From positions 1 through 5,481 of IMG/VR virus record IMGVR_UViG_2728369593_000014: DNA of 5,481 nucleotides. One strand, written 5' to 3'. A program made the position numbers and the translations under genes. How positions within the stretch are numbered: position 1 is the first letter of the stretch; every line of letters begins with the position of its first letter. Source of the DNA: a virus. Taxonomy: Duplodnaviria; Heunggongvirae; Uroviricota; Caudoviricetes. Shown here piece by piece: positions 2,889 through 3,808 of this stretch. Under the pieces are notes generated by a model. It worked only from the letters and a program-made list of their open reading frames with translations, did no database searches and had not been told where the DNA came from.

Positions 2889-3066
2889 CTGATGTATGTC
2901 TCCGTCACCGCCGACAGAAAATGAAAGTAAAGGAAAACAAAAAGCCGCCAGTGTCACCCACTGACGGCCAACTCCGGGAGCCGTGATTATGGCATTCAGG
3001 CTCTGCTAAAAATGCCAGATAACATTCCGGCTCCCCCCTGATTCAGGTTATAAATGACACAATATC

Positions 3067-3100
3067 TTGACAACATCCGTCACTGTCTGTCAGAAAATAT
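3067..3100 (+). promoter_or_regulatory. Promoter-like element, module 1: perfect -35 TTGACA then a CTGTCTGT…AAAATA block
   Basis: TTGACA at 3067-3072; the downstream -10 is imperfect (TCAGAA/AAAATA depending on spacer). Paralogous to the elements at 3235 and 4049. The reverse strand has an overlapping TTGTCA-N15-TATAAC pointing toward the holin. Confidence 0.3.
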
Positions 3101-3143
3101 ACCGCTAGGCATAAGTATCATCTTGTATACAACTATCCTTTTG

Positions 3144-3186
3144 AGCCAGCACCTCTCCACCGAAAGTCAGTGCTGGCTGTTTTTTT
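3144..3186 (+). terminator. Intrinsic terminator, plus-strand orientation (module 1)
   Basis: AGCCAGCAC(3144-3152)-loop-GTGCTGGCT(3170-3178) followed by GTTTTTTT; on the minus strand the hairpin is followed by AAAAGG, so it is unidirectional. Confidence 0.6.
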
Positions 3187-3234
3187 CCTTAATAAAGCAT
3201 CTGTAACTGAAACAGTCCGCATATTGATAATATA

Positions 3235-3268
3235 TTGACAGGCATCATTGCTGTCTGTGAAAAATAAG
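3235..3268 (+). promoter_or_regulatory. Promoter-like element, module 2: perfect -35 TTGACA then a CTGTCTGT-GAAAAATA block
   Basis: TTGACA at 3235-3240, 17-nt spacer, TGAAAA/AAAATA; sequence is paralogous to module 1 (CATC…CTGTCTGT…AAAATA). Confidence 0.3.
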
Positions 3269-3293
3269 TCTCTACAAACATATAAGGCCTTTT

Positions 3294-3332
3294 AGCCAGC
3301 GTCTTCTTTCAGGTCAGTCGCTGGCTTTTTTT
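3294..3332 (+). terminator. Intrinsic terminator, plus-strand orientation (module 2), abutting the 3' end of minus-strand gene B
   Basis: AGCCAGCG(3294-3301)-16-nt loop-CGCTGGCT(3319-3326) followed by TTTTTTT; stem sequence is paralogous to module 1 (both preceded by CCTTTT). No U-run on the minus-strand side. Confidence 0.65.
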
Positions 3333-3333
3333 A

Positions 3334-3808
3334 TTATGCTGCCGGTGCATTTATCTCCAGCACCAGACTTTCTATCTCAACGCCATACGCTGCATTTTTT
3401 GTAACATCCGTCAGCGTCAGCGCATTCAGTCCCAGTGTCAGACTGTCTTTTATAACCTGGAATGCCGGGCCAGCCACTCCATTCAGTTTCGGAGTAACCG
3501 TGGCACTGCCGGCGGTGAACACCAGCTCCAGCGTCTGCCAGTCGTTACCGTAATCGCCGAACTCCCCCAGCTTCGTGTTTCCGGCTTTCCTGTGATGCAT
3601 CAGATTCACTCTGCCGTCAGTGGTCTGAGTGAAGTACGACATCAGGAACGGATCCCCCCAGCAGCTCATCCAGAATGGCATCCACTTCAGCATCAAGACG
3701 CGCCTCAAGATTCTGGCGGAGTTGCTGTTTCAGTGCGCTTCTGACTTCTTCAGAGCGCAGGACGTCCTTCACTGCTTCAGCAGTGACCAGAGATTTTATT
3801 TCTGACAT
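3334..3808 (-). CDS. 'Gene B': hypothetical protein with a C-terminal ~100-aa domain paralogous to gene A; reading frame split by a 1-nt frameshift in a G6 run
   Basis: N-terminal part (ATG 3808) MSEIKSLVTAEAVKDVLRSEEVRSALKQQLRQNLEARLDAEVDAILDELLG is in one frame; C-terminal part …DPFLMSYFTQTTDGRVNLMHHRKAGNTKLGEFGDYGNDWQTLELVFTAGSATVTPKLNGVAGPAFQVIKDSLTLGLNALTLTDVTKNAAYGVEIESLVLEINAPAA is in the +1 frame. They meet at minus-strand GGGGGG (plus CCCCCC 3655-3660); with G5 the gene would be one ~157-aa ORF. The C-terminal domain aligns with gene A (NxxYYKGNAGQNTKLGSFGAFDNEWHTLGFRFAG…VTP…G…TPF…TDITSGATYPVLIESITVEVNNP). Confidence 0.6.

Follow-up and report, generated by a model that had tools for sequence, protein, structure and literature searches.

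In the late region of a lambdoid prophage, represented by a 5,481-nt stretch of virus DNA (IMG/VR record IMGVR_UViG_2728369593_000014, positions 1 to 5,481; hereafter the window), the plus strand at 3060-3335 very probably carries two tandem paralogous genes for Hfq-binding small RNAs (sRNAs) that act in trans. Unit 1 would encode an allele of PasA, and unit 2 the 63-nt RNA known as EcOnc52/51. Both RNAs are already known, PasA from ligation and sequencing of interacting RNAs (RIL-seq) and Northern blotting in 2021 and EcOnc51/52 from crosslinking and analysis of cDNA with Hfq (Hfq-CRAC) in 2014, and finding them here is a rediscovery. A first-pass annotation of the window, made from the sequence alone, had proposed two short non-coding plus-strand RNAs of the kind found in prophages of enterohaemorrhagic Escherichia coli (EHEC), and published experiments on loci 94-97% identical to this one agree with that proposal. 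The existence, size, Hfq dependence and partners of PasA, as well as the Hfq binding and chimeras of unit 2, were shown by others on such near-identical loci.

The identity of unit 1 rests on the work of Pearl Mizrahi et al. 2021 (PMC8550237), in which five prophage sRNAs were described in enteropathogenic E. coli (EPEC) E2348/69. One of these, PasA, is an Hfq-dependent sRNA of 85 nt that was validated by Northern blot and RIL-seq and that falls 7-fold (log2 -2.8) in an hfq deletion (PMC8550237). The reverse complement of the PasA Northern probe matches window positions 3153-3177 with 0 mismatches. The window locus aligns end to end with the PP2 prophage locus of E2348/69; in this alignment the 85 nt of PasA (NC_011601.1, minus strand, 743499 to 743415) are equivalent to window 3102-3186, and the major 3' end reported for PasA (PMC8550237) maps to the unit 1 terminator. 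The two sequences are identical at 71 of 85 positions, with a perfect match in the 3' part (43/43) and all 14 differences in the 5' part (28/42 identical). The allele of EHEC Sakai prophage Sp12 is closer to unit 1 (78/85 identical), and the 5' part of unit 1 also has a private cluster of changes at 3132-3140. By homology, unit 1 is an allele of PasA.

The published interaction data show how PasA behaves in EPEC. Its 41 RIL-seq partners comprise 36 coding sequences or 5' untranslated regions (UTRs), 3 3' UTRs or intergenic regions and 0 sRNAs, and PasA is the second RNA in 94-100% of its chimeras (PMC8550237). Most partners are unlinked core and virulence mRNAs that have a seed-complementary motif in common, and those reported include ftsB, frr, escD and an esterase 3' end (PMC8550237). 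The proposed seed is GCCAGCACCU, located at the 5' arm of the terminator, and the target motif is CUG(A/G)UGCUGG (PMC8550237, Fig. S5, Table S7). In the window the seed occupies 3145..3154 on the plus strand, where it overlaps the 5' hairpin arm and is invariant in the alignment of tandem loci described below. The first-pass annotation had suggested consulting Hfq and RIL-seq data, and the published data answer it for both units: besides the Hfq dependence and the 41 partners of PasA, unit 2 corresponds to an Hfq-CRAC peak.

Unit 2 was detected in two pathogens. In EHEC O157:H7 Sakai, EcOnc51 and EcOnc52 are Hfq-CRAC peaks in prophages Sp12 and Sp4, respectively, with predicted intrinsic terminators (Tree et al. 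2014, PMC4104026, Table S2); the two, 77 and 78 nt long and nearly equal in signal, remained candidate sRNAs (PMC4104026). Both were later listed as EHEC homologues of PasA (PMC8550237). The coordinates of EcOnc52 give TCTCTACAAACATATAAGG...GCTGGCTCTTTTTTT, which is unit 2 from 1 nt before its predicted +1 to just past the T run. In Sakai Sp4 an insertion of the insertion sequence (IS) IS629 removed unit 1, and unit 2 remains alone with its promoter region. When aligned, unit 2 of the window and unit 2 of Sp4 and Sp12 differ only where the terminator stem ends on its 3' side, by an indel of 2 nt (GCTGG-CTTTTTTT vs GCTGGCTCTTTTTTT). The seed-equivalent of unit 2, GCCAGCGUCU at 3295-3304, is a PasC-type version, and its terminator is a PasC-type 3' end. 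In EPEC, the 'minor' isoform of PasA is 236 nt long and ends at 743264 (PMC8550237), which is the unit 2 terminator, so that unit 2 forms the 3' part of this isoform. A separate sRNA-like entity in the same RIL-seq data, pasA.E2348C_0688.IGR, has 5 partners (e.g. escD) and 0 sRNA partners, and is always the second RNA (PMC8550237); its 3' ends (743267-743294) also fall on the unit 2 terminator.

The Sakai assignments depend on a coordinate correction. The positions given by Tree et al. refer to an older Sakai record (NC_002695.1), and we calibrated their offset against NC_002695.2 by means of probes and terminators: it is 0 at 0.90 Mb (EcOnc32) and about +128 to +144 at 1.27-1.94 Mb (AsxR, EcOnc33, AgvB1). 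Uncorrected look-ups of EcOnc RNAs in the current record land on the wrong sequence. This was the case for EcOnc51 (Sp12, 2.24 Mb), which appears as the hairpin of unit 1 only with unshifted coordinates; the correction moves it to unit 2, to which EcOnc51 therefore probably maps as well. That the two peaks are so alike in size and signal is consistent with reads that map to several identical copies of unit 2.

The two units are built alike. In each, TTGACA, N10, CTGTCTGT, an A-rich -10 region, a short body, a U-rich stretch, a GC hairpin and T7 follow one another in this order, and every element of the promoter-hairpin-T7 unit that the first-pass annotation had seen twice could be located on the plus strand within 3060-3335. 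The promoter-like region of unit 1 (3067..3101, plus strand), whose activity we infer, consists of the -35 TTGACA (3067-3072), CTGTCTGT (3083-3090, with TG at 3088-3089) inside an 18-bp spacer, and an A-rich block (3091-3101) that begins with a weak -10, CAGAAA (3091-3096), and leaves 5 nt to the 5' end. The 85-nt RNA predicted by homology to PasA, at about 3102..3186, has a variable 5' portion of 42 nt followed by CCTTTTGAG, and a conserved 3' portion of 43 nt that contains the U-rich stretch, the seed and the terminator. The intrinsic terminator (3144..3186, plus strand) has a stem of 9 bp (3144-3152 / 3170-3178) and then G + T7 at 3179-3186, a single G standing between the stem and the T run (3180-3186). 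In unit 2 the paralogous promoter-like region (3235..3269, plus strand), likewise of presumed activity, has its -35 TTGACA at 3235-3240, CTGTCTGT at 3251-3258 inside an 18-bp spacer and its A-rich block at 3259-3269, beginning with the weak -10 GAAAAA (3259-3264), again 5 nt from the +1. The predicted RNA, the counterpart of EcOnc52, spans 63 nt at about 3270..3332 on the plus strand; a stretch of 24 nt that ends in CCTTTTAG precedes the hairpin, and sequence and fold place the terminator at a stem of 8 bp (3294-3301 / 3319-3326) and T7 (3326-3332).

This likeness is far beyond chance. A global alignment of unit 1 with unit 2 scores 48, compared to 6.9 +/- 3.7 for shuffled sequences (maximum 26, n=500; z about 11), and the pattern TTGACA-N10-CTGT occurs 3 times in the window vs 0.01 expected. 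Both RNAs are also more stably folded than their shuffles (unit 1, -19.8 kcal/mol, z = -2.3; unit 2, -16.0 kcal/mol, z = -3.3). The hairpins are oriented as terminators of the plus strand, and both are annotated 'terminator' in the record of phage 434. On the minus strand they continue into CAAAAGG / AAAAGGCC, without a U run; because of this they can terminate plus-strand transcription only, as the first-pass annotation had argued. It was equally right that the units oppose their flanking genes, since the class II holin gene (2682-2888) and the esterase fragment (3334-3708) are both on the minus strand, and its lengths and 5' ends (about 3100 and 3270) are within a few nt of the published ends. 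The unstructured leader of 60-90 nt that it described has to be shortened to 42 nt in unit 1 and 24 nt in unit 2, counted from the inferred 5' ends.

With respect to transcription initiation, both units combine a -35 that matches the consensus perfectly, a spacer of 18 bp with TGT as its last letters (TG at -15/-14, as in an extended -10), an A-rich hexamer and 5 nt to a C. This geometry puts the +1 at about 3102 and 3270, which are the two independently published 5' ends, taken from EPEC RNA-seq coverage for unit 1 and from the EHEC CRAC peak for unit 2; these are ends of read coverage and not 5'-triphosphate mapping. Judged by these elements, each unit appears to have its own sigma-70-type promoter, and we think it probable that unit 2 starts from its own. 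The most serious alternative, which we regard as possible though distinctly less likely, is that unit 1 is the sole gene, that unit 2 has decayed since its duplication and provides, with its hairpin, a back-up terminator, and that EcOnc51/52 and the RIL-seq entity derive from read-through or processed PasA. The 236-nt minor form of PasA, which spans the PasA 5' end to the unit 2 terminator, is what such read-through would produce, and the original PasA authors merged the unit 2 region into PasA and treated EcOnc51/52 as PasA homologues (PMC8550237). On the other side, the complete promoter geometry of unit 1 persists in unit 2, also in L032, the locus of our alignment that diverges most, and the 5' edge of the EcOnc52 peak is 1 nt from the predicted +1 of unit 2. 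The ratio of PasA to unit 2 RIL-seq fragments also shifts about 20-fold between growth conditions, from 4983:119 (42:1) in activating medium to 116:54 (2:1) in non-activating medium, a change that speaks against constant or pure read-through.

Several points weigh against our interpretation of two independent trans-acting sRNA genes and have to be set beside this evidence. The promoter assignments, the independent initiation of unit 2 and function in the window's own strain are our inferences, the transcripts being known from other strains. A simple sigma-70 consensus scan of the window reports neither unit promoter because the -10 hexamers are weak; those of both units match 3 of 6 positions. 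Zhu, Shabalina & Storz 2026 (bioRxiv 10.64898/2026.05.13.724894) regard the 5' end of PasA as arising by processing. The 236-nt isoform shows that PasA read-through accounts for at least some of the unit 2 signal, and the identity of the unit 2 copies in Sakai means that CRAC reads are not assignable to the stand-alone Sp4 copy, a fact that also serves the read-through alternative. Lastly, we take the coordinate shift at the position of EcOnc52 (1.18 Mb) to be small, because a large shift would put EcOnc52 inside IS629 and contradict its listing as a PasA homologue.

If both units are sRNA genes, as we favor, their likely mode of action can be outlined. The locus has the 3' end of the truncated sialate-esterase gene on one side and the holin gene on the other, and its transcription would run against the late operon. 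Both RNAs would finish with CCUUUU and an intrinsic terminator, which together make up the usual 3' module for Hfq binding. Produced in the lysogen, they would act on mRNAs in trans, through short base pairing on Hfq, the pairing region of PasA being GCCAGCACCU at the foot of the terminator. Some PasA transcripts would pass the terminator of unit 1 and end at that of unit 2, as the minor form of 236 nt. The neighboring esterase mRNA is a likely partner through its 3' end, which contains a candidate target site, GGUGCUGG (3357..3364, minus strand), that is the perfect complement of CCAGCACC in PasA (3146-3153). The PasA target sites found by RIL-seq in the homologous esterase 3' ends of E2348C_0688 and E2348C_1246 read CUGAUGCUGGA / CUGGUGCUGGA (PMC8550237).

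This neighboring partner also favors a second alternative, that the main role of the locus is in cis, either with hairpins that block antisense transcription into the esterase and late genes or with RNAs that pair with the esterase-to-holin intergenic transcript in the manner of lambda OOP and tune the esterase or lysis genes. In its favor are the PasA chimeras with esterase 3' ends (PMC8550237), and the window retains the complementary GGUGCUGG; the units also lie inside a 3' UTR or intergenic part of the late-strand transcript, of roughly 390 nt, that has its own terminator-like hairpin (2969-2943). RIL-seq also recovered a late-strand RNA opposite the PasA 5' end (pasA.E2348C_0689.IGR, + strand, 743494-743512) (PMC8550237). 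However, most PasA partners are unlinked core and virulence mRNAs, and terminators alone need neither conserved promoters nor U-rich Hfq modules nor Hfq-dependent accumulation. We consider a main role in cis improbable; as a second function it is compatible with trans-acting sRNAs. The first-pass annotation had itself raised the insulator idea, which may stand as a side effect of the hairpins but does not account for the Hfq and RIL-seq data.

The annotation had also suggested, while grading the evidence as weak, that CA-rich stretches 5' of the hairpins are sponge-like seeds. By this account the units would be anti-sRNAs of the AgvB/AsxR type that sequester a core sRNA such as GcvB. They do occupy the same kind of slot as AgvB and AsxR, which are convergent sRNAs in the moron region downstream of pR', their layout of variable 5' and conserved 3' parts is similar, and unit 2 contains ACAAACA, which is close to the GcvB target consensus. 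We nevertheless regard this account as very improbable. In EPEC RIL-seq the partners of PasA and of the unit 2 entity include 0 sRNAs, and the sRNA-sRNA chimeras listed for the activating condition include none with either of them. The published PasA seed is elsewhere, in the invariant part of the RNA, whereas the CA-rich stretch of unit 1 is in the variable part. Pairing of both 5' regions with E2348/69 GcvB, computed with RNAduplex, was no better than for shuffles (30% and 63% of shuffles did equally well). The covariance-model check that had been proposed for both units came out negative: an Rfam 15 cmscan of the whole window at E <= 1 gave no AgvB (RF02702), AsxR (RF02703), STnc100 or other match in 3060-3335, and its single, weak match, to a rimP leader, was outside this interval. 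The AgvB and AsxR models have a conserved 3' region of about 42 nt. The AsxR and AgvB loci showed no obvious TTGACA-N10-CTGT frame on the sRNA strand, in a comparison subject to the shift between the published coordinates and the current Sakai record.

The idea that the locus encodes a small protein can be dismissed: a 50-aa plus-strand open reading frame (ORF) at 3054-3206 is open in the window, and to this extent the earlier statement that there is no credible plus-strand ORF was too strong, but the frame is broken by a stop at codon 24 or 26 in 17/17 other unique variants and its ATG precedes both the -35 and the 5' end mapped for the RNA, so that as a gene it is not conserved and effectively refuted.

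The two-unit locus is widespread. Of 5426 complete E. coli genomes, 671 contain the stretch, and the median copy number in these is five; phages YYZ-2008 (NC_011356), H-19B and 434 as well as 22 Stx1a phages match the region at 94-97% identity. IMG/VR was scanned with the patterns TTGACA-N10-CTGTCTGT and AGCCAGC...GCTGGCTNTTTTT, and related loci were then chosen by local BLAST; among the matches listed, most were chance single matches, and at least about 50 related loci remained after BLAST. We aligned 28 full tandem loci, among which there are 18 unique sequences. Almost no variation is seen in the two promoters, in the 3' half of unit 1, in the spacer or in the body of unit 2, and substitutions concentrate in the 5' body of unit 1, at about 3099-3142. 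In L032 the unit 2 -35 and CTGTCTGT are retained and the changes in unit 2 fall mostly just after the predicted +1. Unit 2 was also observed alone, with its promoter region and a short esterase 3' remnant, on plasmids of about 90 kb in O111, O145 and O103 strains (L004 and similar); these copies (equivalent to window 3182-3341) are 91% identical, lie beside IS elements and have a weakened hairpin, with a U-G pair, loss of the closing pair and T6.

Comparison of the tandem loci with PasC, another of the E2348/69 prophage sRNAs, reveals a simple relation. The PasC locus of E2348/69 is the tandem locus minus 150 bp between the two hairpin starts: the missing stretch starts directly ahead of TTTT(G)AGCCAGC in unit 1 and stops at the corresponding position in unit 2, directly ahead of TTTTAGCCAGC. 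The PasC terminator, TTTTAGCCAGCGTCCTTCAGAGTGGGCGCTGGCT, is identical to the unit 2 terminator of a tandem locus (L229), and the PasC-type architecture is present in at least 13 loci. The complementary case also exists, in that one locus (L039) has a unit-1-type hairpin joined directly to the esterase end, and in its stem a C-G pair has been replaced by U-A in a compensatory manner. Among 14 hairpin variants, pairing is kept in 95% of stem cells, and both sides have changed in 3 pairs, a covariation that is informative only across the paralogues and L039, single unit types being too similar. Zhu et al. 2026 (bioRxiv 10.64898/2026.05.13.724894) state that pasA copies are not products of tandem duplication. 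Neither the tandem paralogy nor PasC as a 150-bp deletion is described in the available parts of Pearl Mizrahi 2021 and Zhu 2026, and to that extent the two points appear to be small additions to the literature.

The same promoter frame recurs once more in the window. A third promoter-hairpin-T7 unit, at about 4055-4170 on the plus strand, has TTGACA at 4055-4060, N10, CTGTTGGT and TAAAAA, and would give an RNA at about 4090-4169 that ends in the hairpin GCCGCCGG...CCGGCGGC followed by T7 (-29 kcal/mol, z = -4.2). Window 4088-4122 is an exact match to the reverse complement of the EcOnc33 Northern probe (Tree et al. 2014), and EcOnc33 is about 71 nt in Sakai Sp6 (PMC4104026). This unit, a homologue of EcOnc33, directly adjoins the second DUF6645 fragment (minus strand, 4176-4829) at its stop codon; it shares its promoter geometry with units 1 and 2 and differs from them in RNA body and hairpin. 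A similar relation is seen with EcOnc32 of Sakai Sp3, which is about 112 nt on Northern blot and very abundant in Hfq-CRAC (PMC4104026). EcOnc32 (L237, NC_002695.2 about 901570-901700, minus strand) has, like the units here, a slot upstream of the holin and an ATAATA..TTGACA context; its terminator is of the unit 2 type, with an esterase 3' remnant behind it, whereas its RNA body differs. It looks like a further allele of the same cassette, the relation of both EcOnc32 and EcOnc33 to our units being one of promoter and terminator framing and not of RNA sequence.

These observations suggest a wider proposal, which we put forward tentatively and consider about as open to doubt as to belief. Unit 2 would be an independent, unnamed member of the PasA/PasC group with its own seed, GCCAGCGUCU; unequal recombination between the units would have produced PasC, as the promoter and body of unit 1 fused to the terminator of unit 2, and L039, through deletion of unit 2; and an exchangeable promoter/terminator frame would also drive EcOnc33 and EcOnc32. 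If this were true, lambdoid prophages would carry an exchangeable 'sRNA cassette' system beside their lysis genes.

The surroundings of the units are conserved in order. The sequence esterase, sRNA, holin, lysozyme, with the sRNA convergent, is the same in the window, E2348/69 PP2 and phage YYZ-2008, and Zhu et al. place pasA and pasC between the sialate esterase and the holin/lysozyme genes, with YYZ-2008 (NC_011356) as representative (bioRxiv 10.64898/2026.05.13.724894). The minus-strand fragment that adjoins unit 2 (3334-3708) is the C-terminal part (DUF6645) of a SASA/NanS-p esterase. It belongs to the first of two successive truncated remnants on the minus strand, 3334-3969 (DUF826 + DUF6645) and 4176-5059 (DUF1737 + DUF6645), and at each DUF6645 remnant a convergent plus-strand sRNA terminator abuts the stop codon. 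The window lacks the complete SASA esterase (1851 bp) that related phages have, and because of this the sRNA of the PasD/STnc100 type that is normally upstream of it is absent as well. Just upstream of the holin gene, which adjoins the units on the other side, there are terminator-like minus-strand hairpins at 2969-2943 and 3014-3031. The phage 434 record lists the former as a terminator; it and the plus-strand units face each other as convergent terminators, and the esterase 3' UTR that it would delimit, of the length given above, would be fully antisense to both sRNAs. Holin and lysozyme genes normally overlap or abut, and here about 690 bp (1993-2681) separate them; a plus-strand ORF in this segment (2112-2426) overlaps a 'hypothetical protein' of a near-identical genome, and the segment looks like an insertion inside the lysis cassette. 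At the left end, window 1-285 is the 3' end of an IS3-family transposase gene on the plus strand, with an IS-end-like GGGGCGGTTCA at 300-320, and the window diverges from the closest complete genomes left of about 320-490, the best match being 99.4% over 321-5481. The complete E. coli genome collection contained no match to the whole window at 100% identity.

No new kind of mechanism is opened by these results. PasA is among the most connected sRNAs of the EPEC accessory genome and contacts mRNAs of the enterocyte effacement locus (LEE), bfp and the core genome, and its alleles therefore matter for virulence regulation in EPEC and EHEC. The new points are modest: the tandem paralogy, the reassignment of EcOnc52/51 to unit 2, the reading of PasC as a 150-bp deletion fusion and the promoter frame in common with EcOnc33. 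They would aid the annotation of such loci in the complete E. coli genomes that have them, roughly 13%, and explain the relation of PasA to PasC.

Among known systems, PasA/PasC of EPEC E2348/69 are the closest, since unit 1 shares with them the probe match, the identical 3' 43 nt, the promoter region, the synteny and the convergent orientation; in their available parts, the papers on PasA and PasC treat unit 2 only as the 3' extension of the minor PasA isoform. The EcOnc52 peak of EHEC Sakai Sp4 covers the RNA of unit 2, and the later literature lists EcOnc51/52 simply as 'PasA homologues'. AgvB and AsxR, from Stx and other EHEC prophages, are likewise short, Hfq-bound and convergent, with a conserved 3' and a variable 5' part, but they are located next to stx or a moron, whereas the units here are next to the holin, and there is no match in sequence or structure. 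Lambda OOP resembles them in that it is short, has a promoter and an intrinsic terminator of its own, and converges on a phage protein gene, whose 3' end it abuts. OOP overlaps the end of the cII coding region and acts as a cis-antisense RNA through RNase III. In contrast, the RNAs described here, which have no homology to OOP, stop 1-2 nt before the esterase stop codon and have their partners mostly among trans mRNAs on Hfq.

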